From: Chloroflexota bacterium
Lineage (GTDB): Bacteria; Chloroflexota; Dehalococcoidia; GIF9; UBA5629
NCBI GenBank assembly: GCA_016865855.1
Contig: VGNX01000003.1
Coordinates: 4,147 to 68,146, forward strand
Length of the DNA stretch: 64,000 nt
Direction of reading: 5' to 3'
Shown here: positions 3,866 through 61,902 of the stretch, in pieces
Layout of the letters: each line of letters starts with the position of its first letter
Position numbering within the stretch: the stretch's first letter is position 1
Translations under genes and position numbers: made by a program
The notes under the pieces: generated by a model
Told to the model about the DNA's origin: nothing
What the model saw: the letters and a program-made list of their open reading frames with translations, nothing else
Database searches by the model: none

Positions 3866-4925
3866 GGTTCTCATGAACGGTAACAGCGCCATTGGCGAAG
3901 CAGCCATCAGAGCCGGCTGCCAGTGCTATTTCGGATATCCGATCACACCTCAGAATGAGCTGATCGAATATATGGCTGCTCACTTGAGCAGAAGGAAAGG
4001 CTGTTGCTTTATTCAAGCAGAAAGTGAGATTTCCGCTATCAATATGGTCTATGGAGCTAGCCTGGTCGGTGCCAGAGCAATGACATCCTCATCTAGTCCT
4101 GGCATCAGTCTGAAGCAGGAAGGGATTTCTTATCTTGCCGCCTGCGAACTTCCGGCAGTTATTGTGAACATGTCCAGAGGTGGGCCAGGGTTAGGAAGCA
4201 TAGTAGCCGCTCAGTCAGATTATTTCCAGGCTACTAGAGGTGGAGGTCATGGAGATTACAGGACCATAGTTTTAGCGCCTTCATCAGTGCAGGAACTGGC
4301 AGACCTCACCCACAAAGCTTTTGACCTTGCCGACAAATACAAAATTCCAGTAATTCTTCTTGGAGACGGCGTTTTGGGCCAGATGATGGAGCCGGTAGAA
4401 TTCAAACATGAAGCTCCCGCGGAATTGCCAGTCAGAGGTGATGCATTAAGGGGGGCAAACGGACGGCCTAGCAAAATTGTCAAGACATTTACCTCAAACC
4501 CTGCTGAACTGGAAGAGATTAATTGGAGTTTATTCAGAAGATATTCTTTAATTAAAAAACAAGAAACCGCCTACGAAACATTCTTGGCGGAAGATGCTAA
4601 GTTGATAGTCGTTGCCTTTGGTATAGCAGCCCGTATCGCTAAAGGAGCAATCAAAATGGTGCGGTCAACAGGTCTAAAGGTTGGATTGCTCAGACCAATT
4701 ACCCTCTGGCCATTCCCTGTTGAAAAAGTCCAAGAATTAACCAAGAAAGTAAAACACTATCTTGTCTTCGAGATGAATATGGGGCAGATGATAGAAGATG
4801 TGCAATTGGCGCTGGAAGGCCAAGGTGAAGTTTCTTTTTACGGAAGACCGGGAGGGGTGATTCCCACCCCAAGCGAGGTTGCTCTCGTAATCTCACGCCT
4901 TTACCATCAGAAGGGTTTGAAGTAG
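3858..4925 (+). CDS. korA: 2-oxoacid (2-oxoglutarate-type):ferredoxin oxidoreductase alpha subunit
   Basis: 355 aa. N-terminus MNGNSAIGEAAIRAGCQCYFGYPITPQNE matches the POR/KOR alpha pyrimidine-binding domain. Confidence 0.85.
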   Translation: MAKVLMNGNSAIGEAAIRAGCQCYFGYPITPQNELIEYMAAHLSRRKGCCFIQAESEISAINMVYGASLVGARAMTSSSSPGISLKQEGISYLAACELPAVIVNMSRGGPGLGSIVAAQSDYFQATRGGGHGDYRTIVLAPSSVQELADLTHKAFDLADKYKIPVILLGDGVLGQMMEPVEFKHEAPAELPVRGDALRGANGRPSKIVKTFTSNPAELEEINWSLFRRYSLIKKQETAYETFLAEDAKLIVVAFGIAARIAKGAIKMVRSTGLKVGLLRPITLWPFPVEKVQELTKKVKHYLVFEMNMGQMIEDVQLALEGQGEVSFYGRPGGVIPTPSEVALVISRLYHQKGLK

Positions 4926-7375: not shown

Positions 7376-8170
7376 TCACTTAGTGAACCGGGGCGGCCTC
7401 TTTTCTAAAAACGCCTGAATGCCTTCATTCACCTCATCCGAGAGCATAAGCCTTTCCACAAGCTCTGGCTCGCATGGATACAGGTCAGCCATCCTGGCTA
7501 GCGATGCCGCGTTGACAATCTTCTTGGTTATCCTTGTAGCCAGAGGGCCCTTGGTAGCAATTTTCTGCACCAGCTCTTTACACGAACTCATCAACTGTTC
7601 TGGAGGCACAACCTTGTTCACCAGCCCTATCCTCAGCGCCTCATGAGTGTCAATGTTATCGCAGGTCATAATCATCTCTTTAGCCCTCGCCGGCCCTACC
7701 AAGGCAGTGAGGCGAGGAGTAGCTCCCCAGGTGAAAAAGATGCCCAGGTTAGTCTCAGGCACGCCGAGAACAGCATTCTCAGAGGCAATTCTGAAATCAC
7801 AGTTCATAGCCAGGCAAAGCCCCGCCCCCACACAGGCACCATTGATAGCGGCTATGGTCACCTGCTCCAGGCTTTCCATAGTCTGCATAAAATCGTGCCC
7901 AAACAACTGCCACAATCTTTCATTCGCCAGCTCAGGCCTGGCATATCTTTCTGCCATTGACTTCTTGGTAAATTCGGCGCCGACAGAGAAAGCTCGTCCT
8001 GCCCCGGTGAATATCACAAAACGCGTTTTCTGGTCTCCCCTGAGTTCGGCAAACAAATCCTTCAGCTCCAGCATTATCTGCGCATTCAAGGCATTCAATA
8101 TCTCAGGGCGGTTCAAGGTAACCGTAGCCATATTACCAGATTTTTCCACCAGCAATGTTTTATATGGCAT
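7376..8170 (-). CDS. Enoyl-CoA hydratase/isomerase (crotonase) family protein
   Basis: Crotonase signatures (VTLNRPEILNAL, FTGAGRAFSVGAE, AAINGACVGAGLCLAMNCD). I prefer the ATG at 8170, preceded by GGAGGTG, over the track start at 8194. Confidence 0.85.
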   Translation of the reverse strand: MPYKTLLVEKSGNMATVTLNRPEILNALNAQIMLELKDLFAELRGDQKTRFVIFTGAGRAFSVGAEFTKKSMAERYARPELANERLWQLFGHDFMQTMESLEQVTIAAINGACVGAGLCLAMNCDFRIASENAVLGVPETNLGIFFTWGATPRLTALVGPARAKEMIMTCDNIDTHEALRIGLVNKVVPPEQLMSSCKELVQKIATKGPLATRITKKIVNAASLARMADLYPCEPELVERLMLSDEVNEGIQAFLEKRPPRFTK

Positions 8171-8250
8171 CTTCACCTCCGTTGCTACGAGCATTGAGAA
8201 TATCTATCTGCACCCAGCTTATCAACTTTCCCCAAAAGGCGGATGAAAGC

Positions 8251-9720
8251 CTACGAGCCTAAAATCCTGGCGGCAGCTTCAGCAATACCGACAAAACCGC
8301 CCGGTACAACACCTAAAAGCAGGACAAAGAGGCAGCAGAGTAATAAAGCAGTGCGCAGTGCCCATGACGAAGGCACCTTTTCCTCCGAGGCCGGAGCTCC
8401 TAACCACATCACCTTCACCACCCTCAGATAGTAGAAAGCTGAGACACAGCTGTTTATCACAGCCACAATAACCAGCCACAGCAAACCGTGCTGCACCGCC
8501 CCACTGAAAATATAGATTTTAGCAATAAGCCCTGCAGTCGGCGGCAAGCCAATCAAAGAGATTAAGCAAAAACTCAAGGCCAGAGCCATGAGCGGTGCCC
8601 GCTTACCCATCCCGGTGTAATCATCGATCACATCGCTATCAATCTTGTTGGATATAGCTATGACCGCAATGAAAACCCCAAGGTTAGTAACAGCGTAGCT
8701 CATGAGGAAGAATAGCAGCCCGCTTTGCCCCAAAGCATCATTACCTGCCGCCATCCCAACGGTTGCTAACCCCACCATAAGGTAGCCAGCCTGAGCTATG
8801 CTGGAATAACCGAGCATGCGCTTTATGTTAGTTTGAACGATAGCTACGATATTCCCTACAGTCATCGTTATAGCACTCAAAATGGCAAACAGCATGCCCC
8901 AGTTAAGGCTAAGCCAGTCGGGAGAACCAAGAGCGCCAAAGAAGACACGGAGAATAACAGCAAAGCCTGCAGCTTTACTGGCTACAGAAAGATAGGCGGT
9001 AATCGGCGTCGGCGCACCTTCATAAACATCAGGTACCCACATCTGGAAAGGAAAACAGGCAATCTTGAAGCCAAAGCCGGCAGCCAAAAGGATAATGCCC
9101 AAAAGCAAAGCTGGATTATTCAGTAGGCCAGCACCAGGCATCCCCTGAACAAAATCGGCAATACACACCAGGCAAGTCCTTCCCGTAAAACCGAAGACTA
9201 ATGCCATGCCATAAAGAAGCACCGCCGAGGCGACAGCGCCTAGAAGTAAGTATTTCAGTCCTGCCTCGGTTGACTTCTGGTCCTTAAGAAAGCTGGCCAG
9301 CACATACAGCGAGATGCTGCTCAATTCCAAAGCCACATAGATAGTAATCAGGTCGGCTGCTGCTACCAGCAGCATCATACCTACAGCTGAGATGAGCACT
9401 AACGCATAATACTCGCCCTGAAATCTCGCAAATTTGCTCACATAGTCCTGAGAGGCTAGGATAATCAGGCCAGCTGCTACCAAAACCAGTAGCTTGAAGA
9501 AAAGAGCAAAGTTGTCAACCGCCAGCATGCCGTAGAAAATAGCAACACTGGGTGCTCCCCACATCGCCACCGTAAAACCAGCAGAAACTATTACGCCAGC
9601 TATGCTGACAGCAGCCAGAACCTTCTTCTGCTTGATAAACAAGTCCAGCAGAATCACCACCAAGGCAAAACCCAAAAGACTGAGTTCCGGTGCCAATAAG
9701 CGAAGCTCACCAACTATCAT
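8251..9720 (-). CDS. nuoN: NADH-quinone oxidoreductase subunit N
   Basis: 489-aa polytopic antiporter-like subunit, last gene of the nuo operon. Confidence 0.85.
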   Translation of the reverse strand: MIVGELRLLAPELSLLGFALVVILLDLFIKQKKVLAAVSIAGVIVSAGFTVAMWGAPSVAIFYGMLAVDNFALFFKLLVLVAAGLIILASQDYVSKFARFQGEYYALVLISAVGMMLLVAAADLITIYVALELSSISLYVLASFLKDQKSTEAGLKYLLLGAVASAVLLYGMALVFGFTGRTCLVCIADFVQGMPGAGLLNNPALLLGIILLAAGFGFKIACFPFQMWVPDVYEGAPTPITAYLSVASKAAGFAVILRVFFGALGSPDWLSLNWGMLFAILSAITMTVGNIVAIVQTNIKRMLGYSSIAQAGYLMVGLATVGMAAGNDALGQSGLLFFLMSYAVTNLGVFIAVIAISNKIDSDVIDDYTGMGKRAPLMALALSFCLISLIGLPPTAGLIAKIYIFSGAVQHGLLWLVIVAVINSCVSAFYYLRVVKVMWLGAPASEEKVPSSWALRTALLLCCLFVLLLGVVPGGFVGIAEAAARILGS

Positions 9721-9736
9721 CAGCTACCTCTTTACT

Positions 9737-9893
9737 TGTCACCCTAAACCTCTTTACCTGTCACCTTGAACCTCCTACCTGTCACCCTGAACCTCCTACC
9801 TGTCACCCTGAACATCCTTACCTGTCACCCTGAACCTCCTACCTGTCACCCTGAACATCCTTACCTGTCACCCTGAGCGATAGCGAAGGGTCT
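9737..9893. repeat. Tandem array: six truncated 21-22-bp copies of the TGTCACCCTGA arm followed by one full family-2 element
   Basis: Unit starts at 9737, 9759, 9780, 9801, 9823, 9844 and 9866 (periods 22, 21, 21, 22, 21, 22). The last unit continues as TGTCACCCTGAGCGATAGCGAAGGGTCTC. Confidence 0.9.
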
Positions 9894-12100: not shown

Positions 12101-12157
12101 TGTCACCCTGAGCGACAGCGAAGGGCCTCCAGATTCTTCGCTTCGCTCAGAATGACA
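12101..12157. repeat. Family-2 palindromic repeat (TGTCACCCTGAGCG..GCGAAG..AGATTCTTCGC..CTCAGAATGACA)
   Basis: Nested inverted repeats. Related copies at 9866-9975, 19470-19526, 21052-21174, 25340-25495, 45745-45860 and 48018-48127. Confidence 0.9.
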
Positions 12158-21001: not shown

Positions 21002-21193
21002 TCAAAATCTCAGAAATATAAATTATCTTAAAGAATTAAGCCAGCAATCCTTGTCATTCTGAGCCCAAAGGGCGAAGAATTTCATAGCCTTCTCAGAGCC
21101 TACCCTGAGTGAGATTCTTCGCGGAGCCTCTCCTGAGCTAGATTCTTCGGGCGCTTCGCTCTCTCAGAATGACAAAGGGCGAAGGGCTCACAA

Positions 21194-21340
21194 GCTGTCC
21201 GAAAATGTAGTCCCGACCCTTTAGGGTCGGGCTCCCGAGGCTAAAGCCTCGGAGCTACATGTTTAATGTGTATCACCAATGAGCTATAATTTTTCCCACA
21301 AAGTGGGAGAGACAGATTGCCAGTTAGAGTTTTCGGACAG
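21194..21340. mobile_element. 147-bp MITE-like element with 12-bp perfect terminal inverted repeats
   Basis: GCTGTCCGAAAA (21194-21205) and TTTTCGGACAGC (21329-21340) are exact reverse complements. The interior carries a family-1 double hairpin and is near-identical to 61652-61789. Confidence 0.75.
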
Positions 21341-25248: not shown

Positions 25249-25370
25249 GTCATTGCAACCTCTTTCGCCTCATGCCATTCTGAACCTTCCCACTTGTCAT
25301 TCTGAGCCTTCCCACTTGTCATTCTGAGTCTTCCCCTTTGTCATTCTGAGCGTAGCGAAGAATCTCTCCA
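25249..25370. repeat. Tandem array of truncated GTCATTCTGAG arms (22-bp period) ending in a full family-2 element
   Basis: Unit starts at 25249, 25274, 25296, 25318 and 25340. The last unit continues GTCATTCTGAGCGTAGCGAAGAATCTC. Confidence 0.88.
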
Positions 25371-26200: not shown

Positions 26201-27427
26201 CTAAGAGGAAATCCCCCCTCCTCCACCTTCGTTAGTCTTTCCGCTTTTCCACCCAGTTCTTCCTTCAATCGAAATACTATTGGGAGCATTTAACATTTTT
26301 CTCTCTAACTGGCAAACCTGGGTGAAAATACAATATCCGTCATCCCTAAAAATCAACCTGTCTTGTGGAACTAGACTCTCCAACCTTTTTTCCGCTATCT
26401 CTTTTTCTGGTGGACAAATGCGTTTGCTTGGTCGACAGGCTATCTTGCCAAGTCTAAAGATCAGATAGTCCATTGATGCTGGCGTTGGTGGTCTATGATT
26501 CTTAGGAATTTCACCCCACTTTTCCCACACCTCTCTCCACGATTCACGGTTTAATCTATCTACCATTGAATACTGATAGCAAAAAACATCCAAGAAACTT
26601 GCAAGTAAGGGGATGCGAAATTGGATAATCCCTGTTCTCAACGCCACCCTCATAGTATTTTTGTCGCTCATGACATCCAATTTCTCCACATTTCTTTTGT
26701 ATTTCCATACACTTAAATCAGCCATGTCTCTTAAGAACATGTGAGACTTTTTGATAGAAAAACCATATTTCTCTTCTGCTGTTAACGACTTCACTATCTC
26801 AACGACATCTCCATCATGAACCTTGTTAATTGCATATGCCGACGAGTTATATTGTTCCACCAGTAATCTTGCAGAATTCAACATCCAAGGTTTTCGTTTG
26901 TCTCTCTGTGACTGGGCCCCAAGAAAATTAAGAAGTTCGTCTACCAATAAAGCATTATTCATTACTTTTTCAGGCCTGAAACAATTGGGGTGTCTTTTGT
27001 AAAATTCAAATGGATTGCTTCTTGCATGGACGTCGATATTGAAATCTTGGATTGCGGTAAAAAACCTTACATTAGCAATTTCCTCTTCGGTCAAATCAAG
27101 GGTATCTAATTGGACTCTGATAATATTACTTTTATAGATACCTTCCAACACTTTGGCTACTGTTAGACACTCCCCTTTCGGATTGATCTTCGGAGACAAT
27201 ACCTTTTCGTGGTTTTCTTCCCAGTATCTGTGAAATTCTGAAATATATTCAGAAGGCAAAATTGCTTTTTTCTGATAAAGAAAACTATTAATTTCATTCA
27301 GTATATTTGCTGCTAATTTGTATTCGTCTTCGCCCTCAAATTCTCCAATCTTAAACCTTATTCCGCAATGCTGTGCAAGCTTTTCAAGAAATTCGAGAAA
27401 ATTTGACATAAATGCGCTATCTCCCAT
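26201..27427 (-). CDS. HhH-GPD-like protein with EndoIII-type 4-Cys cluster (putative DNA glycosylase), AT-rich island gene 3
   Basis: Track ORF is 26201-27457. Likely start is M11 (27427) or M17 (27409). HhH-like YGFSIKKSHMFLRDMADL (aa 231-248), LDVMSDKNTMRVALRTGI (aa 260-277, compare EndoIII VDTHIFRV..R), and C341-x6-C348...C376-x5-C382. Confidence 0.5.
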   Translation of the reverse strand: MGDSAFMSNFLEFLEKLAQHCGIRFKIGEFEGEDEYKLAANILNEINSFLYQKKAILPSEYISEFHRYWEENHEKVLSPKINPKGECLTVAKVLEGIYKSNIIRVQLDTLDLTEEEIANVRFFTAIQDFNIDVHARSNPFEFYKRHPNCFRPEKVMNNALLVDELLNFLGAQSQRDKRKPWMLNSARLLVEQYNSSAYAINKVHDGDVVEIVKSLTAEEKYGFSIKKSHMFLRDMADLSVWKYKRNVEKLDVMSDKNTMRVALRTGIIQFRIPLLASFLDVFCYQYSMVDRLNRESWREVWEKWGEIPKNHRPPTPASMDYLIFRLGKIACRPSKRICPPEKEIAEKRLESLVPQDRLIFRDDGYCIFTQVCQLERKMLNAPNSISIEGRTGWKSGKTNEGGGGGISS

Positions 27428-27707
27428 CTCTAAAGAATTTTGCCTCCCCAGTGGCAAGGTTTAATTCTATTATCCCTATTGTTTCACCAACAGGCTTGTG
27501 GGCAGCCTGTGCGGTATCGTAGATATCAATTACGATAGCCTCTTTTTTCTCAAAAGTAATATGCACGGTTCTATCTAGTTCGTTATCAACGTAGAACCCC
27601 TCAAGTTCACCCATTCTAAAAACTCTTGAACCTTTCTTTTCTCCCCTTCTATATATTGCCACAGAAGGTTCCATAGGAATATACTTGTCAACCTTGTGCC
27701 ATGTCAT
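27417..27707 (-). CDS. Hypothetical 96-aa protein, AT-rich island gene 2
   Basis: ORF tightly packed between the methyltransferase and the 418-aa gene. No motif recognised. Confidence 0.5.
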   Translation of the reverse strand: MTWHKVDKYIPMEPSVAIYRRGEKKGSRVFRMGELEGFYVDNELDRTVHITFEKKEAIVIDIYDTAQAAHKPVGETIGIIELNLATGEAKFFRDGR

Positions 27708-27723
27708 AGTTTTACCCCCTTTC

Positions 27724-29283
27724 TCAATAAACCTTTTTATAAATTAACAGATATTGGTGGGTTATTCTCAGATACTCGCCATTATCAGAGTCAACGTTAT
27801 CCAACTTACTTTTTTCTTGGGCAACCACCACTATCTCCTTTAACCATAAACTACCTGAAGTAATCGCATCTATCATTCGTTTAGCAAGAGGCTCTATATA
27901 TCCATCTATTCTTACATCCTGTGTCTGGATCGCTATGAAACCACCATCAGTTATACTATGCACTTCACGAGCTATAACTTCGTTTACCTTCCGCAAATAG
28001 CCCTCAATATCTACTCGAGAGGGATTATTAGCTAGAAACGGTGATTTTATAAAGAGTAATCTTCTTCTTTTTGCACTCCTATCAATGGCGGAAGTATCGT
28101 CTTCAGAATGTGGAAGGAAAGTTATAGTGGAATATCCATCACCGTTTGAATATCTATCAATTACATTTTTGTTCAAGCGTGCTTCAAAATCCTTCACTGG
28201 CAAGACCCACACAGTTGTGGTCTCAAGTTCGTCCAATTTCCTTTTCAAGTATGGCTTCTCTAAAGTAGGAGCAACTAAACTATAATCAGCCCCGCTTTCT
28301 TCCACGCCCAAAGGAACAATTCGCTCATGTTTCTCAAAAATCGGTAAATACTCGTGGGCTAACAGAAGAAAATTGTATTTTACGCTATTGGCATACCAAA
28401 ATCCCGTAGTTTTGCAGTTATGTTGACGCTTAATAACAAGCTCTTTCAATTTAAAGCCGGCATCTAAATATACGTTTATGAGTTTAAAACCTAAAGGAAT
28501 AACATGTTTCTTCCTTCGCATGTCTCCTATCAAAATAGCGCACTGTCTACCTGGTTTCAGCACCCTAAAACTCTCTTTTGCGACCTTGGACATCTCTTTC
28601 AAGAACTCATCCATGCCCAAAAATGATAAGTCACCTTCTTTAGAATCCGTATAATGAATAATGTTTGCATAGGGAGGATGAGCACAGATTAAATCCACCG
28701 AGCTATTATCTAAAAATGACAAATCTCTCGCATCGCCAACCAATAATTCAGGTTCATGAATCTGATAATGGCTTTTTTCGCTAATAAGAATTGTTTGTCG
28801 TGAATCTACGTTAAAACTTACATTCGCCTGTGCTAACTCAATGGCCTTATCATTGATATCAAAGGCTATGCACCTTCTTCCTAAAAGTTTACACTCCACA
28901 GCGGTTGTTCCCGCACCACAGAAATAATCTAAAACTAACTCACCGGGTTTCGAATATTTGAGAATCAAATTCCTCGGAATGTAAGGGGACCAATTTCCTC
29001 TATACTCTCCACTATGAGTTGCCCATTTACCCCTTTGTTTAAAACTCCAGACGGTCGTTTCCTCTTCCTTGAAATCCTTTGGGTAAAGCGTTTTTACCTT
29101 TTTATGGCCTCTAAGAGCACTAATATTCACTCCCTGTGATTTAGTGATAAGTCGCTCAATATACCTAAACGTAACTCCGTATTTCTGACCAATCTCTAAG
29201 TCTGGAATCCCCCTTGCTTTTTCTTGTAAGATCTTCTCCTGGAGTTCTTTCTCAGTTTTTGAGGTCACTTTTTGACTAGTCAC
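27724..29283 (-). CDS. DNA methyltransferase (N4-C/N6-A, PF01555-like sequence but permuted motif order) with N-terminal HTH
   Basis: TTVWSF..HSGEY..PRNLILKYSKPGELVLDYFCGAGTT (motifs X-I, aa 76-127, nt 28903-28923 for FCGAGTT) precedes DLICAHPPYANI (motif IV, aa 197-208, nt 28669-28680 for HPPY). HTH-like GIPDLEIGQKYGVTFRYIERLI at aa 25-46. Confidence 0.8.
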   Translation of the reverse strand: MTSQKVTSKTEKELQEKILQEKARGIPDLEIGQKYGVTFRYIERLITKSQGVNISALRGHKKVKTLYPKDFKEEETTVWSFKQRGKWATHSGEYRGNWSPYIPRNLILKYSKPGELVLDYFCGAGTTAVECKLLGRRCIAFDINDKAIELAQANVSFNVDSRQTILISEKSHYQIHEPELLVGDARDLSFLDNSSVDLICAHPPYANIIHYTDSKEGDLSFLGMDEFLKEMSKVAKESFRVLKPGRQCAILIGDMRRKKHVIPLGFKLINVYLDAGFKLKELVIKRQHNCKTTGFWYANSVKYNFLLLAHEYLPIFEKHERIVPLGVEESGADYSLVAPTLEKPYLKRKLDELETTTVWVLPVKDFEARLNKNVIDRYSNGDGYSTITFLPHSEDDTSAIDRSAKRRRLLFIKSPFLANNPSRVDIEGYLRKVNEVIAREVHSITDGGFIAIQTQDVRIDGYIEPLAKRMIDAITSGSLWLKEIVVVAQEKSKLDNVDSDNGEYLRITHQYLLIYKKVY

Positions 29284-53417: not shown

Positions 53418-53458
53418 TTTAACCCCCTCCCGTGAGTGAGCAATAGTATACCACGGCT

Positions 53459-53585
53459 GTCAACCTGTTATATAATGAGATAGCGTATTATCTAATCAGG
53501 CTTTTCTTTGGAGGAGAGAACTGCCCCAAACGCATGTGACCACGAGGCTTTAGCCTCGTGGTCACGACCCTGAAGGGTCGCGGCT
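53459..53585. repeat. 127-bp direct repeat, copy 1 (contains a TGTTATATAAT promoter-like box and a family-1 hairpin)
   Basis: Matches 53876-54002 with about five mismatches by eye. Confidence 0.9.
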
Positions 53586-53623
53586 TTAAGGAGGCATAAA
53601 ATCAACTGAGGCAGGAGGAGTAT

Positions 53624-53839
53624 ATGGGTAAAAAGGGAAGACAAAGCGAGCCAAAATTCCAAGTAAATGACACAGTAACAATTAAGGGTGAAACCAAGCA
53701 TGGGATTATTATTGATGTTAATTGGGTTGGAATGTCTGGAATTAATATTGATTTCCAGCGTGACTTGTACATTTATAAAGTGAAAATAGGAGATGCCGTC
53801 AAAGACGTTATCGAAGAGGATATTATTGGAAGCAAGTAA
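53624..53839 (+). CDS. Hypothetical 71-aa protein (possibly a small SH3/Tudor-like beta-barrel)
   Basis: AGGAGG 5 nt upstream of the ATG, AT-rich coding sequence, enclosed by the 127-bp direct repeats. Confidence 0.55.
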   Translation: MGKKGRQSEPKFQVNDTVTIKGETKHGIIIDVNWVGMSGINIDFQRDLYIYKVKIGDAVKDVIEEDIIGSK

Positions 53840-53875
53840 AGATAAGCAAATCAACCATGATTGAACTGAACCGCC

Positions 53876-54002
53876 GTCAACATGTTATATAATGAGATAG
53901 CGTATTATCTAATCAGGCTTTTCTTTGGAGGAGAGAACTGCCCCAAACGCATGTAGCCACGAGGCTTTAGCCTCGTGGTCACGACCCTAAAGGGTCGTGG
54001 CT
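53876..54002. repeat. 127-bp direct repeat, copy 2 (immediately upstream of polA)
   Basis: See copy 1. Offset between the copies is 417 bp. Confidence 0.9.
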
Positions 54003-54085: not shown

Positions 54086-56800
54086 ATGGCTAAAGAAAAA
54101 CCGTTACTCTTGCTTTTCGATGGAAATGCTCTGATACACCGGGCTTTCCACGCCTTACCCCCACTCACAATATCCAAGACCGGGGAAATGGTCAATGCCG
54201 TCCAGGGCTTTGCCAGCACATTACTCAAGGTGCTGAATGAAATCAAGCCGACTCACTGGGCTATTGCCTTCGACCCCCCCACACCAACCTTCAGACATGA
54301 GAAATTCGAGGATTACAAAGCTCAACGCCCCAAAACTCCCGAAGAGCTTATCAATCAGATAAAGCGGGTTCACCAACTGGTAGATGCCTTCAATATTCCC
54401 ACCTTCGAAATCGATGGTTTCGAAGCTGATGACGTTTTGGGTACCCTGAGCTGCCAAGCTGGCCAGCAAAACGTAGACACCCTCATCGTTACTGGCGACA
54501 ACGATATCCTCCAAGTTGTCTCACCTAACACAAAAGTAATGGCTCCAAGACGAACCTTCAGTGACACAGTAATCTACGATGAGGCAGGTGTAGAGCAGAA
54601 ATACGGCATATCTCCCGAGCAACTTGCCGAACTCAAAGCCCTGGCCGGCGACCCCTCAGACAACATCCCTGGCATCCCCGGCATCGGCGACAAGACGGCA
54701 GCCAAGCTACTGCGACAATTCGGCAGCCTCGAGGGAATATATAGGCATATTGACGAAATAACTCCTGAGAAGCTACAGGCATTGCTCCGCGACCATAAAG
54801 CCCATGTTCTTCAAAATAAGGAGCTGGCGACGATAGTCACTGATGTGCCTATAAGTTTGAACCTAGATGCTTGCCAGGTCAGCTCTTACGACAGACATCA
54901 AGTAGTCGAACTTTTCCGTGAACTGGGATTCGTCCAATTGCTATCCAGACTGCCTGAGGAGATAGAAGGGACACTAACTGTAGCTCCCAGCCAGGCCATA
55001 TCCAAGAAGGACTACCACATAATTAACACTGACCAAGCTTTAGATAAGCTTATTACCCAGTTGCTGACCGCCAAAGAATTCACCGTTGACCTGGAGACTT
55101 CCAGCAAAGAAGTCATGGCTGCTGAACTTGTCGGCATCTCATTGTCATCAACACCAGGTGAAGCCTACTACATACCGGTGGGACACCGTGGCTTAAGCCA
55201 AATATCCCAGCTACCATTGTCTCAAGTCATTGCCAAGCTTAAGCCTGTGCTTGAAGACGCCAAAATCCCCAAAACAGCCCACAACGGCAAATTTGATATG
55301 ACGGTGCTTGCCGAATACGGGATAAAGCTTGAGAATTTGACCTTCGATACCATGATTGCCGCTTATCTGCTTGGCGAAAAATCCATCGGGCTTAAAGCGC
55401 TGGCTTTCAATAAACTCGGAGTCGAGATGACACCCATCACCGACCTAATCGGCAAAGGAGCCAAGCAGCTCTCTATGGCGATGATAGCAACAGAACAGGT
55501 TGCCGATTATGCCGCTGCCGATGCCGATATTACTCTAAGACTTAAAAACATGCTCGACGCCGAGCTGCAAAAAGAAGGACTATGGCAACTTTTCAGTGAA
55601 GTGGAGATGCCTTTAGTCCCGGTGCTGGTAGCTATGGAAAGAAATGGGGTCGCTATAGATGTTGAACTGCTGCGAGATATGTCTCACAGCCTGGGGAAAG
55701 AAATGCTCAGACTGGAAGCAGAGGTTTACAACAGCCTCGGCTACAGGTTCAACATAAACTCGTCACAACAACTATCCCGAATCCTTTACGAGGAGCTGAG
55801 ACTCCCCAAGCCGCGCAAAACAAAAAGCGGCTATTCCACCGAAGCTGCAGCACTTGAAGAACTAAGAGAAACTCACCCCATAATTGGACTTGTCTTGCAA
55901 TACCGACAGCTCGCCAAGCTGAAGTCAACTTACACCGATGCTTTCCCTGCCTTAGTCAACCCTAAAACAGGCAGGCTCCATACCAGCTTCAACCAGACAG
56001 GCACAACCACCGGCCGCCTTTCCTCCAGCGAGCCGAACATGCAAAACATCCCCGTAAGAGGCGAGCTGGGGGGGCGAATAAGGCAGGCCATTATCGCCCA
56101 GCCGGGGTGGTATCTCCTATCTGCCGATTATTCACAAATTGACCTCAGGGTATTAGCTCATATCTCCCAGGACCCTGAACTTATCGCCACTTTTCTGAGA
56201 GATGAAGATGTCCATACCGCCACCGCCTCCAGTGTCTTCAACATATCCCCGGACAAGGTGACATCAGAGATGCGTCGCGTGGCCAAGACGGTCAATTTCG
56301 GCGTAATCTACGGCATGAGCGACTATGGCCTGGAGCAAGCCACCGAATTCAGTCGAGAGGAAGCCGCCCAATTCATCACCTCCTATTTTGAAAAATACCC
56401 CAAGGTCAAAGAATATATCGAAAACACCAAAAGCCAAGCCAGAGAGCGGGGCTACGTGCAAACGGTGATGGGCAGGAGGCGCTACATACCTGAAATCAAC
56501 TCGCCAAACCGGCAGGTCAGAGAAGCTGCCGAGCGAATGGCAATAAACATGCCGGTGCAGGGCACCTCTGCCGATATTATCAAAATCGCCATGGTCAACC
56601 TTCACCGCGAGATGGGAAACCGGAACTTGCGAAGCAAGATGACCCTCCAGGTTCACGATGAGCTTGTCTTCGAGGTGCCTCCAGAGGAGATAGACTTGAT
56701 GAAGGAACTGGTCTCCCAGATAATGCCTCAAGCCTTAAAGCTCAGCGTGCCGCTAAAGATAGACATCAAGCTGGGCAAAAACTGGGCCGAGATGGGATAA
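54086..56800 (+). CDS. polA: DNA polymerase I
   Basis: MAKEKPLLLLFDGNALIHRAF (5'-3' exonuclease), exonuclease motifs (TVDLETS), and polymerase motifs (DYSQIDLRVLAH, KTVNFGVIYG, QVHDELVFE). Start at ATG 54086 after GGAG. The track ORF start at 53975 lies in repeat DNA. Confidence 0.95.
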   Translation: MAKEKPLLLLFDGNALIHRAFHALPPLTISKTGEMVNAVQGFASTLLKVLNEIKPTHWAIAFDPPTPTFRHEKFEDYKAQRPKTPEELINQIKRVHQLVDAFNIPTFEIDGFEADDVLGTLSCQAGQQNVDTLIVTGDNDILQVVSPNTKVMAPRRTFSDTVIYDEAGVEQKYGISPEQLAELKALAGDPSDNIPGIPGIGDKTAAKLLRQFGSLEGIYRHIDEITPEKLQALLRDHKAHVLQNKELATIVTDVPISLNLDACQVSSYDRHQVVELFRELGFVQLLSRLPEEIEGTLTVAPSQAISKKDYHIINTDQALDKLITQLLTAKEFTVDLETSSKEVMAAELVGISLSSTPGEAYYIPVGHRGLSQISQLPLSQVIAKLKPVLEDAKIPKTAHNGKFDMTVLAEYGIKLENLTFDTMIAAYLLGEKSIGLKALAFNKLGVEMTPITDLIGKGAKQLSMAMIATEQVADYAAADADITLRLKNMLDAELQKEGLWQLFSEVEMPLVPVLVAMERNGVAIDVELLRDMSHSLGKEMLRLEAEVYNSLGYRFNINSSQQLSRILYEELRLPKPRKTKSGYSTEAAALEELRETHPIIGLVLQYRQLAKLKSTYTDAFPALVNPKTGRLHTSFNQTGTTTGRLSSSEPNMQNIPVRGELGGRIRQAIIAQPGWYLLSADYSQIDLRVLAHISQDPELIATFLRDEDVHTATASSVFNISPDKVTSEMRRVAKTVNFGVIYGMSDYGLEQATEFSREEAAQFITSYFEKYPKVKEYIENTKSQARERGYVQTVMGRRRYIPEINSPNRQVREAAERMAINMPVQGTSADIIKIAMVNLHREMGNRNLRSKMTLQVHDELVFEVPPEEIDLMKELVSQIMPQALKLSVPLKIDIKLGKNWAEMG
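56774..56799. repeat. Left copy of the island-flanking direct repeat (att-like core) inside the last polA codons
   Basis: GGCAAAAACTGGGCCGAGATGG is identical to 59868-59889. After one mismatch, ATA also matches. Confidence 0.9.
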
Positions 56801-57064
56801 TATTCGACCTCAAAATACACATATGGAGGGCTTTACAGCTAATAGCGCCAATGCTAGATTTGACAAACCAAACTGCTTAGACGCCCTCAAAGTTAGCCTA
56901 CGAATATGGTGCAGCATAAAAATCCGCTATTTGTCTGCGCGGCCCGAAAAACTTATGTTTCTGCTAGATAGAACATCCCAGAGCTTTCGCATCCCTTTTA
57001 TAGTAGATTTTTACGTAATTTACTAATCGATACAATAATTATTTGTAACAGGATTATTGAAATA

Positions 57065-57093
57065 TTGACATTTATTGTCAATTCTGTTATTAT
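57065..57093 (+). promoter_or_regulatory. Near-consensus sigma-70 promoter with a palindrome over the -35 box
   Basis: TTGACA (57065-57070), a 17-nt spacer, then TATTAT (57088-57093). ATTGACA-TTTAT-TGTCAAT (57064-57082) is a 7-bp inverted repeat. Confidence 0.55.
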
Positions 57094-57145
57094 TGCGTTA
57101 GTAATATAACCAGAACCGATTTAAACATATTACGAGGTGGTTATT

Positions 57146-57370
57146 ATGGTACGAACTTCGGAATCAAAAACAGAAGCCTTCCGGCGTTTAGCAACCAAAA
57201 GAACAAGCGCAGTGCTAGAACGGATTCGAGTTTTGGGGCATTGCGCAAATCCCCAACTTTATGAATATAGTGAGGAGGATGTCAGGAAAATATTCCAAGC
57301 TATAGAAAGAGAGCTAAGAACCATAAAGGCGAGGTTTCAGAACTCAAGCAAAGCAGAATTCCACTTGTAA
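57146..57370 (+). CDS. Hypothetical small helical protein, island gene A
   Basis: 74 aa from ATG 57146 (GAGGTG upstream). The track lists GTG 57137. No family recognised. Confidence 0.55.
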   Translation: MVRTSESKTEAFRRLATKRTSAVLERIRVLGHCANPQLYEYSEEDVRKIFQAIERELRTIKARFQNSSKAEFHL

Positions 57371-57405
57371 AGCGGAGGTAAGCTATAAGTTTCTTGGGGG
57401 TTGAT

Positions 57406-59184
57406 ATGTATACTCTTGAGACAATCAAAACAGAGCAAATTGGTGCCGACTTGTCAAAGGTTGTTGACAAGATTATCAAGCAGTACGAAAGCTTCCCCAA
57501 GGCATTTCAGAAGGAAGCTATCCAGAACGCCTGGGATGAACGTTTAGACAAGAAAAAAGCAACGAATTGGGAGATAAAAATCTATACTGACAGTGCGGAT
57601 GAGCAAGCTCACCTCGTAGTAGAAGATTTTGGTACTAAGGGAATGGATGAGGAGAGGTGGGATGCTTTCTTATCATTATGGAAACCCAAGAAGGAAGAAC
57701 TAGATGCTGGTGGACAGGGTCAAGGGAAGTTTGTACTAATGGGAGCATCAAAGAAAAACATCCTTATCGTTGAGAGCATAAGCGATGAAATACTGTATAG
57801 ATGTAAATTTCTTCAAAACGACAGGAAAAGTTGTGGAGAATGCTCCATCAAAGACTTTGTTCCAAATGCTCAAGCACTAAGCCATAAAGGGACAAAAATC
57901 TGGGTCTACGATATTAAAGGGGATTTCCTGAATTCGATTAATGCTCAAGAATTCGTTGATTCAATAGCTGAAACATGGTGGCAAATCCTAGCAGACCGCT
58001 TCGCTGCTAAGATTTGTCTTTTTGGCAAAGATATAATTCCACCTAAACTCCCTTCTCCGAGAGAGGAACTAACTCTTTTAGAAAACAAACCACTAGGAGA
58101 TTTTGGAAGAATAAAAAGAATGGTCTTGCAGTTTTATGACGAACCTATAGCAGAAATTTTCCAAGGTGTAAGGGTCCAAAGGGCGAATATGATGATTGTT
58201 CGGATACCTTTTGAGGTTTACGACAAGGAATACCAGAATCGTTTTTCTGGGTACATTGAGTTTGATGATATTTTAGAACGTCTTTTGAAAGACATAGAAA
58301 GAACCGATCACTGTGGTTTCTTGTCAGAGTCACCGTGGAAGGAAATTAAAAGCCTGGTAAAAGAAGAAAGCGAAAAATTCGTTGACAAGATCATTCCCAA
58401 GAAGGCGGCACCAAAGGTTTTTCTTCCAAAAAACTTAAATACGATAATTCAAAAGGCTAATCAAATTATCATTGAGAACTGTCCTGATTTACAAGGTCCC
58501 GGAACAATTGTTCCGCCTATATCTAAAAAATCTAAACCGTTTTTAAGATTGGACTATCTGGTACTTAACAAAAGGGAAGTCAAATACGGGGACACTATTA
58601 AGCCCTCCTGCAGGGTGGTTAATGAAGCCGATGAAGACAAGAAATGCCTATTAAGGGTAGAGCTAAAAAGAGAAGGGCAAAGGTTTTTTAAAGAAGAGTA
58701 CAAACTTAAAATAGGTGCCGAAGACAAAAAGCCACTAAAACTATCCGAAATAGAATTGACGAAGGAAGATTACCCAAAAGGTAAATATACTATAAGGGCC
58801 ACGATTCAAGAAGATACGCACGACGTCGACACCAAGGCGACCAGTTTTTACTTAGAGATAAAAAGGGAGCCTGCAAAAAGAGGATTTATCAAAAATATTG
58901 AACCTTTCGAAAGCAACGAACCAATCAGAAATAAACCAATAAACAAGGGGGTCATAGAAATAAACTTTGCGCATAAAGACTTTCTTAATGTATATGAGGT
59001 ATTTAGCAAAATGAAAAAGCAGAATGAGCAAATAGGCTTCTATCTCATCAAGATTTGTTTAGACGAAGCAATCAGTGCATTATATAAGGTGAAACTAAAA
59101 GATCTTGGCAATCAAGACTTAGATGACATAATAAAAGAAATCAACCGGTTAAAGGACAGGATGTACTATGAAGTCTACATCTAA
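57406..59184 (+). CDS. GHKL (Bergerat-fold, MORC/Hsp90-like) ATPase with a C-terminal beta-sandwich-like region, island gene B
   Basis: Motif I EAIQNAWDE (ExxxNxxD, nt 57514-57537), motif II VEDFGTKGM (DxGxxGM, nt 57625-57645) and motif III GGQGQGKF (nt 57709-57732). The track start is TTG 57394. The ATG is at 57406. Confidence 0.65.
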   Translation: MYTLETIKTEQIGADLSKVVDKIIKQYESFPKAFQKEAIQNAWDERLDKKKATNWEIKIYTDSADEQAHLVVEDFGTKGMDEERWDAFLSLWKPKKEELDAGGQGQGKFVLMGASKKNILIVESISDEILYRCKFLQNDRKSCGECSIKDFVPNAQALSHKGTKIWVYDIKGDFLNSINAQEFVDSIAETWWQILADRFAAKICLFGKDIIPPKLPSPREELTLLENKPLGDFGRIKRMVLQFYDEPIAEIFQGVRVQRANMMIVRIPFEVYDKEYQNRFSGYIEFDDILERLLKDIERTDHCGFLSESPWKEIKSLVKEESEKFVDKIIPKKAAPKVFLPKNLNTIIQKANQIIIENCPDLQGPGTIVPPISKKSKPFLRLDYLVLNKREVKYGDTIKPSCRVVNEADEDKKCLLRVELKREGQRFFKEEYKLKIGAEDKKPLKLSEIELTKEDYPKGKYTIRATIQEDTHDVDTKATSFYLEIKREPAKRGFIKNIEPFESNEPIRNKPINKGVIEINFAHKDFLNVYEVFSKMKKQNEQIGFYLIKICLDEAISALYKVKLKDLGNQDLDDIIKEINRLKDRMYYEVYI

Positions 59185-59752
59185 TGACAGGGGGAATAAG
59201 AAAATAGAACTCGGCAGAAGAACCAACGAGGGCTATAAATATGAGGCCAAGATTGACCTCAGTAAAGATCTCTCCTCCCAAATTACCAGAGTAATTAAAG
59301 AAAAAGAGATAAATGAGATTATAAGCAGGAAAGTTGAGGAACTTAGGGAAGCGATAAAAGGATTCCCTGACAAAGAACAGAGTCTCGAATACTATTATCA
59401 AACAGGTAGAAACCTATTATTCTTGGACAATGAATTATTCAGAGACATCGCTCCCTACAGTGTGTTTAGAAGAATTTTTGAGGAGCTACCAGAGATATTG
59501 CCAGGCTTAGGAAAAAGAGCCGTTGCCACAAAGCATTTAGACATCATGTTTAAGCTAGCCCATATAGACAGAAATGACTTGTCTAAAGCTTCATGGGATC
59601 AATGGTACGAAATAATGAAATTTAAAGATATTTACAAAAGACAAGATTTGCTTAAGCAAGCTCTGGATTACTGCAAATCGGGAATGTCTGGCCCCCGCCT
59701 ACGCAAGGAAATTCAGGACCTTATGGGAAACTCGAGAATTATCTCTAAATAG
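59168..59752 (+). CDS. Hypothetical 194-aa helical protein, island gene C
   Basis: Overlaps gene B by 17 nt, suggesting translational coupling. No family recognised. Confidence 0.55.
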   Translation: MKSTSNDRGNKKIELGRRTNEGYKYEAKIDLSKDLSSQITRVIKEKEINEIISRKVEELREAIKGFPDKEQSLEYYYQTGRNLLFLDNELFRDIAPYSVFRRIFEELPEILPGLGKRAVATKHLDIMFKLAHIDRNDLSKASWDQWYEIMKFKDIYKRQDLLKQALDYCKSGMSGPRLRKEIQDLMGNSRIISK

Positions 59753-59792
59753 ATTAAACATAATATAAAATGACCAAAGCAATCAGAGCTAG

Positions 59793-59893
59793 GAATTGAG
59801 CTGCAGCGGAACGGATAAAGAGCCCACTTCACACTGGCTAGCCTCTCGTAACATGTCTATCAGAATTGGCAAAAACTGGGCCGAGATGGTATA
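59793..59893 (+). pseudogene. Diverged remnant of a PolA C-terminus plus the right copy of the island-flanking direct repeat
   Basis: In-frame reading ...LASRNMSIRIGKNWAEMV* compared with polA ...LKIDIKLGKNWAEMG*. 59868-59889 is identical to 56774-56795. Confidence 0.7.
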
Positions 59894-59934
59894 GACTAAC
59901 AAACATATCCTCCTTGAGAATCAAATGGCTTTTC

Positions 59935-60693
59935 TTAGAGCCTCTCCAGCAGTTGTTGCGCTGCCTTGGTGAGCCCGGGGTCAGTTGACATCTCAATACA
60001 TTTCTCCAGGTCGCTCCTTGCTTTAGCCACCTCGCCACCCTTGCGGTAATAAGCATAAGCCCGATTAAAATATGCTTTGGCAAGCTCCGGGTCCAGCTCT
60101 ATCGCCATCGTGCAGTCAGCTATAGCCTTGTCGAACTCCTTTTTGTTAATGTACATAAGGCCCCGGTTATCATAAGCTACAGCCAGCTTCGGGTCTAAAT
60201 CTATAGCCTTATCATAATCGGCTATGGCTCTATCAAACTTGTACTGCCCGGCATAAGCCTCCCCCCTGTTGTTGTAAGCCATGACAAACCTCGGAGCAAG
60301 CACAATAGCCTTGTCATAATTAGCTATAGCTGATTGAAACTGCCCCCTATCGAAGTACACGCTACCACGATTATAATAAGCCTCAGCACGTAGGGGGTCA
60401 AGCTCAACCGCCTTATCAAAGTCAGCTATTGCTTTATCAAGCTCACCTTTCTTATGATAGGCAAGCCCACGGTTGTTATAAGCCATGGCAAACTGTGGGT
60501 CGAGCGCAAGCGCCTTAGTGTATTCCACAATGGCTTCATCATATCGCCCTTGCCCAAAGTGCTCATTACCTCTATTAAGGTGTTCTTTGGCCGGACTCAT
60601 GCAGCTCACTACCATTAACGCAGTAGTAAAGGCAACGCAAGCCGCCAGTATAAGCCTTCCTTTGTAGTTCATTGTCAGCCTTCCGCTAAACAC
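59935..60693 (-). CDS. TPR-repeat lipoprotein
   Basis: 252 aa with a signal/lipobox-like LMVVSC, followed by about six consecutive 34-aa TPR units (A.A..NRG.AY....(F/Y)D.AI.D(F/Y).KA(I/V)(E/D)LDP). Confidence 0.85.
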   Translation of the reverse strand: MFSGRLTMNYKGRLILAACVAFTTALMVVSCMSPAKEHLNRGNEHFGQGRYDEAIVEYTKALALDPQFAMAYNNRGLAYHKKGELDKAIADFDKAVELDPLRAEAYYNRGSVYFDRGQFQSAIANYDKAIVLAPRFVMAYNNRGEAYAGQYKFDRAIADYDKAIDLDPKLAVAYDNRGLMYINKKEFDKAIADCTMAIELDPELAKAYFNRAYAYYRKGGEVAKARSDLEKCIEMSTDPGLTKAAQQLLERL

Positions 60694-60818: not shown

Positions 60819-61628
60819 TTGCCGGAACTGCCTGAAGTCGAAACCATAAAGAGCGAACTTTTACCACACATAATCGGACGACGGTTCACCGGCGTCATCG
60901 TCTACGATGCTAAGCCGGTGCGCCAGCCTTCAGTCGAAGAGTTTCGCCGAAAACTGGTAGGGCAAAAGATAACCAGCCTTGAGCGCCGCGGCAAGTACCT
61001 CATCTTCCACCTGTCCAGCGGCGACGTGCTGGTTACACACCTCAAGATGTCAGGGGCTCTGCTGCTGAATCCAAAACAAACTGACCGTCACGCCAGAGTC
61101 ATCTTTCACCTCGACAACGGCAGCCAGCTTGTCTTTACCGACCGCAGACGACTGGGAGCCGTCTGGCTACTAGAAAATGAACAGGCTGTTACCGGCAAGC
61201 TCGGCCCCGAACCTTTAACTCCCAAATTCACCGCTGAGACTCTAGCCAAACGATTGCAGAGCCATCAGGCGCCGATAAAAGCCGTGCTGCTCGACCAGGC
61301 TTTCCTCGCCGGTATCGGCAACATGTACGCCGATGAAACCCTGTTCGCCGCCAGAATCCACCCGCTGCGGAAGGCAAACAGCCTGTCACCCCAAGAAATC
61401 AGAAATCTACACAAAGCCATCGTAGACATCCTGCGCTCAGCCATTGATAGCAAAGGCGCCAGCGTTGACACCTATAAACGCCCCGATGGTCAGCTGGGCA
61501 CTGCCCATTTTAACTTCTGCGTCGCCCACCGCGGCGGCAAACCTTGTCCCGTCTGTGGCACAGCCATCCAGCGCCTTGCCATCAGAAACCGCGGCAGCTG
61601 CTTCTGCCCCAACTGCCAGAACCCCTAG
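60819..61628 (+). CDS. mutM: Formamidopyrimidine-DNA glycosylase (Fpg/MutM)
   Basis: N-terminus (M)PELPEVE, H2TH region and C-terminal zinc finger CPVCG...CPNCQ. TTG start. Confidence 0.92.
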   Translation: MPELPEVETIKSELLPHIIGRRFTGVIVYDAKPVRQPSVEEFRRKLVGQKITSLERRGKYLIFHLSSGDVLVTHLKMSGALLLNPKQTDRHARVIFHLDNGSQLVFTDRRRLGAVWLLENEQAVTGKLGPEPLTPKFTAETLAKRLQSHQAPIKAVLLDQAFLAGIGNMYADETLFAARIHPLRKANSLSPQEIRNLHKAIVDILRSAIDSKGASVDTYKRPDGQLGTAHFNFCVAHRGGKPCPVCGTAIQRLAIRNRGSCFCPNCQNP

Positions 61629-61648
61629 ACAGACGTGGTATAATTTAT

Positions 61649-61789
61649 CAGGCTGTCTGAAAATGTAGTCCCGACCCTTTAGGGTCGGGCTCCCGAGGCT
61701 AAAGCCTCGGGGCTACATGTTTAATGTGTATCACCAATGAGCTATAATTTTTCCCACAAAGTGGGAGAGACAGATTGCCAGTTAGAGTT
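61649..61789. mobile_element. 141-bp MITE-like element (sibling of 21194-21340) flanked by a 23-bp direct duplication
   Basis: TAGACAGACGTGGTATAATTTAT occurs at 61626-61648 and again at 61790-61812. The interior is near-identical to 21194-21332. Confidence 0.8.
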
Positions 61790-61902
61790 TAGACAGACGT
61801 GGTATAATTTATATTATTGAGGATAAAGGAGGTGGAAAATGTGAACACGTTAGAGCACAAAAATTAGCCATCCTATCAATCGAACTTGAAAGGAGGTAAA
61901 TT

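Follow-up and report, generated by a model that had tools for sequence, protein, structure and literature searches.

A compact cassette without a recognised integrase at the 3' end of polA, in an apparent defence hotspot of Dehalococcoidia

How does a compact cassette come to lie directly behind the stop codon of an essential gene, between two copies of that gene's own terminus, with no recombinase recognised in it? The question is raised by a 3.07-kb island downstream of polA, the gene for DNA polymerase I, in a Dehalococcoidia contig of which we analysed a stretch of 64 kb (the window, to which all coordinates refer; L-numbers are metagenome contigs or loci, and the source contig is L002). 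We propose, with a probability of roughly 0.55, that an integrase-less defence cassette was inserted at the polA terminus by recombination through the short conserved sequence of that terminus, with the necessary functions acting in trans.

The repeat that frames the island is exact. The 22-mer GGCAAAAACTGGGCCGAGATGG lies at 56774-56795 and 59868-59889, as the first-pass annotation had reported, and these are its only two sites in the window, where no further match was found at up to three mismatches; none of 100 dinucleotide shuffles gave any match to the 22-mer. The left copy forms the end of polA (...IDIKLGKNWAEMG, then stop), and the right copy, read in frame, gives ...MSIRIGKNWAEMV before a stop codon. 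A three-way alignment of both junctions with the empty site of L035 extends the duplicated stretch to 27 nt with two mismatches, GGCAAAAACTGGGCCGAGATGG[G/T]ATA[A/G], both of them grouped at one end of the repeat. As read from the sequence, the core is polA coding sequence without dyad symmetry; it is not dif-like and has no inverted Xer-binding arms, unlike the sites of Xer-dependent integrative elements (IMEX). The features at and around the two junctions are as follows.

54086-56800, plus strand: polA, the target gene, encoding DNA polymerase I of 904 aa (gene call and Pfam domains on L002)
56774-56800, plus strand: left repeat copy, the functional polA terminus GKNWAEMG with the stop codon TAA at 56798-56800 (repeat search and junction alignment)
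59753-59867, plus strand: right-end spacer of the island, 115 nt, non-coding, including the codons for 'MSIRI' (sequence)
59868-59894, plus strand: right repeat copy, the displaced ancestral polA terminus, with the pseudo-tail ...GKNWAEMV and the stop codon TAG (contiguous with the spacer and the TPR gene, as in relatives with an empty site)
59895-60672, minus strand: right flank of the hotspot, made up of the ancestral spacer between polA and TPR (59895-59934) and of the convergent TPR gene (59935-60672, 245 aa)
60819-61628, plus strand: fpg/mutM, the second conserved gene of the right flank

The genes next to the island are argF, polA, the TPR gene and fpg.

Is the 22-mer part of an element, or part of polA? 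Among metagenome contigs, 61 contain it, each as a single exact copy and always at the polA stop, and their PolA proteins almost always end in ...GKNWAEMG. PolA homologues name this clade Chloroflexota/Dehalococcoidia; the closest PolA proteins, 92% identical to that of the window, carry the same name. Because each of the 61 contigs has only one copy, at the polA stop, we read the 22-mer as the conserved polA terminus of a broad Dehalococcoidia clade and not as an element-specific att core or a dispersed repeat family.

The first-pass annotation had suggested looking for empty sites in relatives, and the site is indeed empty in about 20 related lineages, where some 40 nt separate the polA stop from the convergent TPR gene, behind which fpg follows. 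From the start of the core to the stop of the TPR gene there are 68-73 nt in all empty sites except L034 (85 nt), and the right copy of the window lies at the same distance from the TPR stop (59868 to 59935). The closest relative by polA, L035 (92.5% nucleotide identity over 1,520 nt), has an empty site. In the three-way alignment the left junction of the window matches this site up to ...GAGATGGGATAA, and the right junction matches it from GGCAAAAAC... onwards and through the spacer, so the right copy is the original polA terminus, displaced by 3.1 kb. The alignment thus identifies 56801-59867 as an insertion relative to the closest relatives. All assemblies with an identical TPR or GHKL protein are occupied and have identical junctions (at least five samples or runs: JGI 3300020222 and 3300020603; Logan SRR7989281, SRR7052952 and SRR16108674), and the island is fixed in the population of this lineage.

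The codons upstream of the right core had been taken, in the first-pass annotation, for a second and diverged polA tail. This part did not survive the alignment. The resemblance of 'MSIRI' to polA 'IDIKL' amounts to 7/15 nt (p~0.09) or 12/27 nt (p~0.03) when the island interior serves as the null, and it is not convincing evidence for a polA mimic carried by the element. The idea of site-specific integration at a gene 3' end fared better in its outline, in that there is an insertion, with empty sites, a duplicated terminus and an intact reading frame; what falls away is the 22-mer as an att core belonging to the element. The low G+C content between the copies, which had been sampled at one line, holds for the island as a whole (0.384, against 0.483 for the whole window). 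In 500-nt windows the values are 0.36-0.42 between the copies and 0.47-0.53 in the flanks, and in tetranucleotide use the island is the most deviant 3-kb segment of the window (distance 0.40, median 0.19), so that its composition is not native-like.

What occupies the same site in other lineages? In most loci of the first clade polA forms the left flank and the TPR gene and fpg the right flank, while the cargo differs. L073 has a RadC-N fragment and a 1,078-aa Eco57I/MmeI-like enzyme, which is a type IIG-like restriction-modification (RM) module, and in L024, L022 and L033 the same module comes after an 828-aa AAA_13/23 ATPase, a HEPN_RiboL-PSP protein or an AAA_21+DUF4435 protein. L074 carries a 310-aa protein and a type III RM system, L053 and L102 a 305-aa protein in a different right context, and L047 and L041 a HEPN protein and a nucleotidyltransferase (HEPN-MNT) followed by further genes. 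The islands are small, about 1-7 kb. From these comparisons we conclude that the polA/TPR junction is a recurrent, multi-occupancy defence hotspot with variable cargo rather than the site of one island. The scanned cargo contained no recognisable recombinase or transposase domain, and tblastn with recombinase queries, a search of limited sensitivity, gave no match in 463 kb (the window and 63 hotspot loci). The window island conforms, as the first-pass annotation had noted: its three open reading frames (ORFs) have no recombinase family match and gave no tblastn match.

The other islands bear scars like that of the window. At the expected position of the ancestral terminus there are pseudo-tails in L024 (15/18, p 0.007), L073 (15/19, p 0.03) and, weakly, L074 (12/15). 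L047, which comes from the same sample as the window, has a pseudo-tail matching at 37/44 nt (PLKIDVKLGKTWAKMG, then stop), and its order is real polA end, HEPN-MNT, pseudo-tail, conserved block and further cargo, which indicates serial insertion at the polA terminus. Between events the length of the pseudo-tail or duplication varies from about 14-19 to 27 to about 44-50 nt. L047 also contains an exact copy of CTGGGCCGAGATGG, the 14-nt 3' half of the core, at +1579 from its polA core; this copy lies within a 215-aa cargo ORF, and its flanks are similar to the right junction of L024 and L073. The interval between polA and fpg varies in a second Dehalococcoidia clade too, from 0 to >2 kb (L016, L039, L058, L062, L071, L044, L017, L045/L057); a small gene whose Cys-rich product has about 115 aa is common there, and GNAT-like and other genes sometimes occur. 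A 450-nt conserved "non-coding RNA" considered between polA and fpg in that clade turned out to be the Cys-rich protein gene on the other strand.

The conserved block that adjoins the pseudo-tail in L047 is a second feature of occupied sites. About 130 nt after the polA stop are conserved in the window and in L053, L074, L024, L022, L033, L025, L063 and L102, although the cargo behind them differs. Two promoter-like features lie in this part of the window.

56796-56925, plus strand: conserved non-coding, promoter-like block after the polA stop in occupied relatives (alignment and promoter scan)
57065-57093, plus strand: the cassette's own predicted strong sigma-70-like promoter (TTGACA, 17 nt, TATTAT with TG; promoter scan, 11/12 matches)

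The motif within the block has a -35 element TTTACA at 56832-56837, a 17-nt spacer and an extended -10 element, TGcTAGATT, ending at 56860, and is directed towards the cargo. In an alignment of eight loci with differing cargo the mean identity is 75%, and the invariant columns, on CTTTAC and TGCT, coincide with the -35 hexamer (CTTTACA) and the extended -10 (TGcTAnATT), 17 nt apart. The motif has a single site in the window and is found in other loci only directly after polA or a polA pseudo-tail. Neither an RNA family nor a convincing structure was found in the block (no Rfam match, and only a 5-bp hairpin from RNAalifold), and a structured RNA or tRNA as the real target was rejected after Rfam and ARAGORN came back empty-handed for this region of the window and 11 related loci. 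We infer that the block acts as a resident outward promoter with a 5' leader. A palindrome, TTGACATTTATTGTCAA, overlaps the cassette promoter and is a possible operator.

The neighbourhood of the island shows further traces of recombination. In sliding-window comparisons with L030, L035 and L053, polA is a mosaic in which the nearest neighbour switches in blocks of a few hundred nt with up to 97-100% identity; since these blocks match different lineages, homologous exchange is frequent at polA. At the stop codon of fpg (61626-61812) lies a 141-nt unit resembling a miniature inverted-repeat transposable element (MITE), which contains a 64-nt double palindrome of the repetitive extragenic palindrome (REP) type and has on either side a copy of a perfect 23-nt direct repeat, TAGACAGACGTGGTATAATTTAT, to which the extended -10 of the downstream gene belongs; L030 and L064 have uninterrupted sequence at this site. 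Upstream of polA (53453-54002), a 71-aa ORF (53624-53839) lies between two direct copies, 95% identical, of a 133-nt stretch of the polA upstream region that includes a REP-like element. L102 and L053 have this ORF with a single copy of the repeat and L103 has a HEPN_AbiU2 gene in its place, so the upstream side of polA is variable too. A near-identical MITE-like unit with 12-nt terminal inverted repeats (GCTGTCCGAAAA) occurs at about 21190-21330. The REP-like paired palindromes (…GACCCTTTAGGGTC…CGAGGCTAAAGCCTCG…GCTACATG) are dispersed and intergenic, with 64-nt copies at 1905, 2088, 21204, 31865, 53950 and 61662 and related 34-nt copies.

We hypothesize that incoming DNA with a copy of the short conserved polA terminus would recombine with the resident terminus, either by a Campbell-type single crossover of a circularised cassette or by homology-facilitated illegitimate recombination anchored in polA. 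The functions would be supplied in trans, most simply by the host's homologous-recombination machinery. Each event would rebuild an intact polA, leave a pseudo-tail scar on the right and regenerate the target for the next event, which would explain the stacked arrangement in L047. The mosaicism of polA, the other bracketed inserts and the varying pseudo-tail lengths together favour recombination through the polA terminus.

Several points weigh against this proposal. The mechanism is deduced from scars, and an identity of 22-27 nt is near the lower limit for RecA-type recombination. The last 700 nt of polA are closest to L035, whose site is empty, and the 3' part of the gene was not clearly imported together with the island; as polA is mosaic throughout, this says little about the mechanism. 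A circle junction (CTATCAGAATT+GGCAAAAACTGGGCCGAGATGG+GATAATATTCG) is present in 0 of the 61 core-bearing metagenome contigs, the same-strain assemblies being occupied throughout, and the same-strain empty junction (ATCAAGCTG+GGCAAAAACTGGGCCGAGATGG+TATAGACTAAC) is likewise missing from the assemblies with an identical TPR protein, which cover at least five samples or runs. Some polA pseudo-tail is present in every island with a readable right junction, and the degenerate remnants have the 14-nt 3' half of the core (CTGGGCCGAGATGG) in common, which would also fit a defined att core. Finally, the defence function of the cassette is deduced from its hotspot context and the predicted fold of its main protein, and PADLOC-DB v2 gave zero matches at E <= 1 for all three proteins.

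Could a site-specific enzyme have done the work instead? A tyrosine or serine recombinase acting in trans might use the polA terminus as attB and insert circular, satellite-like cassettes with the same core in their attP. This explanation is unlikely, and it is the one among the alternatives that we take most seriously. It would account for the short exact core at both junctions, the reuse of one site, where different cargos end on the right in pseudo-tails, the tandem stacking in L047 and the shared 14-nt half-core. There is precedent for it in related organisms, as Dehalococcoides islands integrate at the 3' end of ssrA with direct repeats of about 20 nt. Against it stand the lack of a recognised recombinase in the scanned cargo and in the tblastn search, within its limited sensitivity, and the wide variation in duplicated length. 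No viral or integrative contig with the core and no attP-bearing element was found, and the 22-mer is conserved as polA coding sequence and not as part of an element. Moreover, duplications just as long, and of unrelated sequence, flank two other inserts in the window, and we therefore favour a sequence-independent route over an enzyme specific for polA.

That unrelated sites are duplicated to a similar extent raises a further alternative, in which a transposition-like reaction in trans inserted the cassette with a staggered cut and a long target-site duplication of 22-27 nt, as might have happened with the 141-nt MITE-like unit. Two insertions in the window, both at a stop codon, do have similar duplications (23 and 22-27 nt), and direct repeats that are long and vary in length are produced by some insertion sequence (IS) elements of the IS1634 group. 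We nevertheless find it improbable. Neither terminal inverted repeats at the island ends nor a transposase were found, which also sets the island apart from transposons and IS elements. The two mismatches of the repeat sit together at one end, which is how the boundary of a homology would look, the pseudo-tails at this site differ several-fold in length between events, and the conserved block next to polA is common to islands with unrelated cargo.

Slightly less credible still is a decayed integrative element, that is, a larger island that once had its own integrase and later lost it by deletion. Flanking direct repeats and foreign composition would be expected of it, and in L084 the same cassette lies between two genes for tyrosine-recombinase catalytic domains of about 170 aa, which are 85% identical (L084:4929-5442 and 8034-8551, with the same arrangement in L085). 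These copies read …VLRHNFA…LGHDRLATTEIY…, the left one is frameshifted, and the arrangement looks like a tandem array of integrative elements. The island at polA, however, is compact, with an intact operon, about 345 nt of non-coding DNA on its left and 115 nt on its right, and no recombinase pseudogene. No integrase or integrase fragment was seen in other islands at the site either, and the failure to recognise a recombinase in any scanned island of a hotspot with many cargos makes decay unlikely. Of the two routes that the first-pass annotation had offered, mobilisation in trans or decay, functions in trans are thus favoured; a site-specific recombinase acting in trans would be the less likely form of this. 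A native arrangement with a chance or functional repeat and no insertion, for which one could cite that all assemblies of the exact strain carry it, is virtually ruled out by about 20 empty sites including that of the closest relative, by the foreign composition, by the presence of the cassette in other phyla and by the absence of the repeat from all shuffles.

The proposal of recombination through the polA terminus leaves the question of what the cassette does. Between the repeats are three co-oriented ORFs of 74, 592 and 194 aa, none of which has a match in Pfam, NCBIfam or PADLOC.

57146-57370, plus strand: orf74, the small conserved first cassette gene (no family match)
57406-59184, plus strand: gene for a predicted GHKL (MORC/Hsp90/GyrB-like) ATPase of 592 aa (motifs, AlphaFold model and Foldseek)
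59168-59752, plus strand: orf194, third gene of the cassette, with a 17-nt overlap with the GHKL gene (26 homologues and model)

The 592-aa protein has an N-box (E37..N41) and a G-box (D74.G.G79) that are invariant in 54 homologues, on some of which PF13589 is recorded. Its AlphaFold model (predicted local distance difference test score, pLDDT, 82.7) consists of a GHKL ATPase and transducer domain, an Ig-like beta-sandwich and a C-terminal helical region; the top Foldseek matches are HtpG, MORC3/4, GRP94 and GyrB (E 1e-5 to 1e-8 or lower), while a search of the PDB at the sequence level with the GHKL profile gave no match. The family comprises 88 clusters at 90% identity and is rare, with 327 clusters at 50% identity in 1.84 billion, of which about ten are close and full-length. 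L004, L011, L075, L078 and L090 have homologues of orf74 (42-81% identity) ahead of their GHKL gene, and orf74 is kept in 5/7 independent contexts. All 26 homologues of orf194 adjoin a GHKL gene. The model of orf194 (pLDDT 85.3) is all-alpha and has no fold match in the PDB (best E = 2). Taken together, the predicted fold and the hotspot context suggest an anti-phage or conflict system, not yet characterised, as the most probable identity of the three-gene cassette.

The operon is not confined to Dehalococcoidia. It also occurs in metagenome-assembled genomes of Patescibacteria and Saccharibacteria and in several unassigned contigs, and in most contexts with measurable flanks it is more AT-rich than these, being about equal to them in the AT-rich hosts L084 and L087. 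Its composition and distribution identify the cassette as horizontally acquired and foreign to the window. Carriage by a phage or satellite was rejected, as no viral contig with the cassette or the polA core was found.

The surroundings of the cassette in other hosts are varied. In L075 an 85-nt, 86%-identical direct repeat (1366-1450 and 4302-4386) pairs a tail fragment of a Type-ISP restriction gene with the tail of the resident gene. A tail fragment of a Type-ISP gene lies to the right of the cassette in two host contexts, L075 and L078:3781-3855, in parallel with the polA case. In L087 the cassette is flanked by a 91-nt repeat of intergenic sequence; the repeat in L078 is marginal, and that in L011 has only 16 nt with copies 4.7 kb apart. 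In the L004-L009 lineage, by comparison, perfect inverted repeats of at least 309 nt enclose the cassette (L004:7254-7562, L005:3861-4169, also L007-L009), a structure that could be composite-transposon-like or invertible. The GHKL cassette of this lineage has a fourth gene, of 289 aa, and contigs from different samples end inside the inverted repeats. The flanking repeats are thus too heterogeneous for a single rule; the rule that the cassette always lies between duplicated host gene tails was tried, and it holds for L075 and L087 and not for the others.

Elsewhere in the window, a second compositionally deviant island of low G+C content (0.39) lies directly after the leuS stop (26201-29283, minus strand). 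It encodes an N6_N4 DNA methylase (519 aa) and ORFs of 96 and 418 aa without a family match, is probably an RM system and has no recombinase; a leuS pseudo-tail at its far end was looked for and is absent. Tandem arrays of 21-22-nt units at 9733-9882 and 25268-25351 (TACCTGTCACCCTGAACCTCC; CCACTTGTCATTCTGAGC) are related to dispersed "TGTCATTCTGAG / CTCAGAATGACA" repeats at 12101, 19470, 45746 and 48007.

How does the polA locus compare with known systems? Core defence hotspots (cDHS) such as cDHS1 and cDHS2 of Pseudomonas aeruginosa often lack detectable mobile genes, and the proposal for their movement is homologous recombination of the flanks (Johnson et al. 2023, PMC10250203). Transfer of this kind is not expected to leave scars, and how integrase-less defence islands are assembled and exchanged is described there as an open question (PMC10250203). 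The polA hotspot resembles them in its conserved core-gene flanks, its defence content that varies between lineages, its low G+C content and the frequent lack of a detectable mobile gene. It differs in that it abuts the stop codon of an essential gene, bears scars in the form of duplicated termini and has a promoter-like block at its left edge; its islands are also small, and the host is an uncultured member of the Dehalococcoidia.

With integrase-mediated islands at the 3' ends of tRNA, tmRNA or protein genes the locus shares a direct repeat of the terminus, a maintained reading frame, tandem stacking and empty sites. In contrast to them, no integrase was recognised in the scanned polA islands, the repeat length varies between events, and the right copy at polA is the displaced host terminus, without a convincing extension borne by the element. 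The locus is therefore a variant of both, of core defence hotspots and of islands at gene 3' ends, that is integrase-less, scarred and provided with a promoter-like block. Homology-facilitated illegitimate recombination and Campbell-type integration are known from natural transformation in Acinetobacter and Streptococcus. Here, too, there would be one short homology, a duplication at the anchor and no need for an enzyme encoded by the element; unlike in those cases, the route at polA is deduced from scars and the homology would be very short (22-50 nt).

The cassette itself can be compared with prokaryotic MORC/paraMORC GHKL ATPases, for which an association with RM systems has been described (Iyer, Abhiman and Aravind 2008, cited in PMC12137116). 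It shares with these and with GHKL-Shedu (VcSduA) a predicted N-terminal Bergerat-fold ATPase with a transducer domain and a defence-island context. Unlike GHKL-Shedu (type I-D), it has no DUF4263 PD-(D/E)xK nuclease by Pfam or PADLOC, and it differs from both paraMORC and GHKL-Shedu in the C-terminal Ig-like sandwich and helices and in its fixed partners of 74 and 194 aa.

A bolder interpretation is that the polA terminus and the promoter block form a dedicated cassette-capture platform of this Dehalococcoidia clade, with cassettes that carry a mimic of the polA terminus. We offer it tentatively and consider it rather doubtful. If it were true, an unlinked function or a recombination function of the host would find a core of about 14-22 bp sufficient, and each event would rebuild polA, put the newcomer under the resident promoter and move older cassettes outward. 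Such a platform would be integron-like without an adjacent integrase, and with an essential gene as its anchor the site could not be lost. Like an integron, the locus would have a fixed platform with an outward promoter (predicted here) and variable cassettes added beside it; unlike an integron, it has neither intI nor attC-like sites, the window cassette has its own predicted promoter, and the sequence through which recombination would occur is the end of a housekeeping gene.

In summary, our analysis points to a hotspot at the polA terminus whose scars can be read: terminus duplications of varying length, stacked cassettes and a promoter-like block make the route of acquisition testable, and many empty and differently filled sites are on hand for comparison. 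The rare three-gene GHKL/MORC-like operon, found in Patescibacteria and Chloroflexota, is a candidate for a new conflict system. Attachment of a hotspot to an essential gene's stop codon may be a general means of keeping an acquisition site stable.

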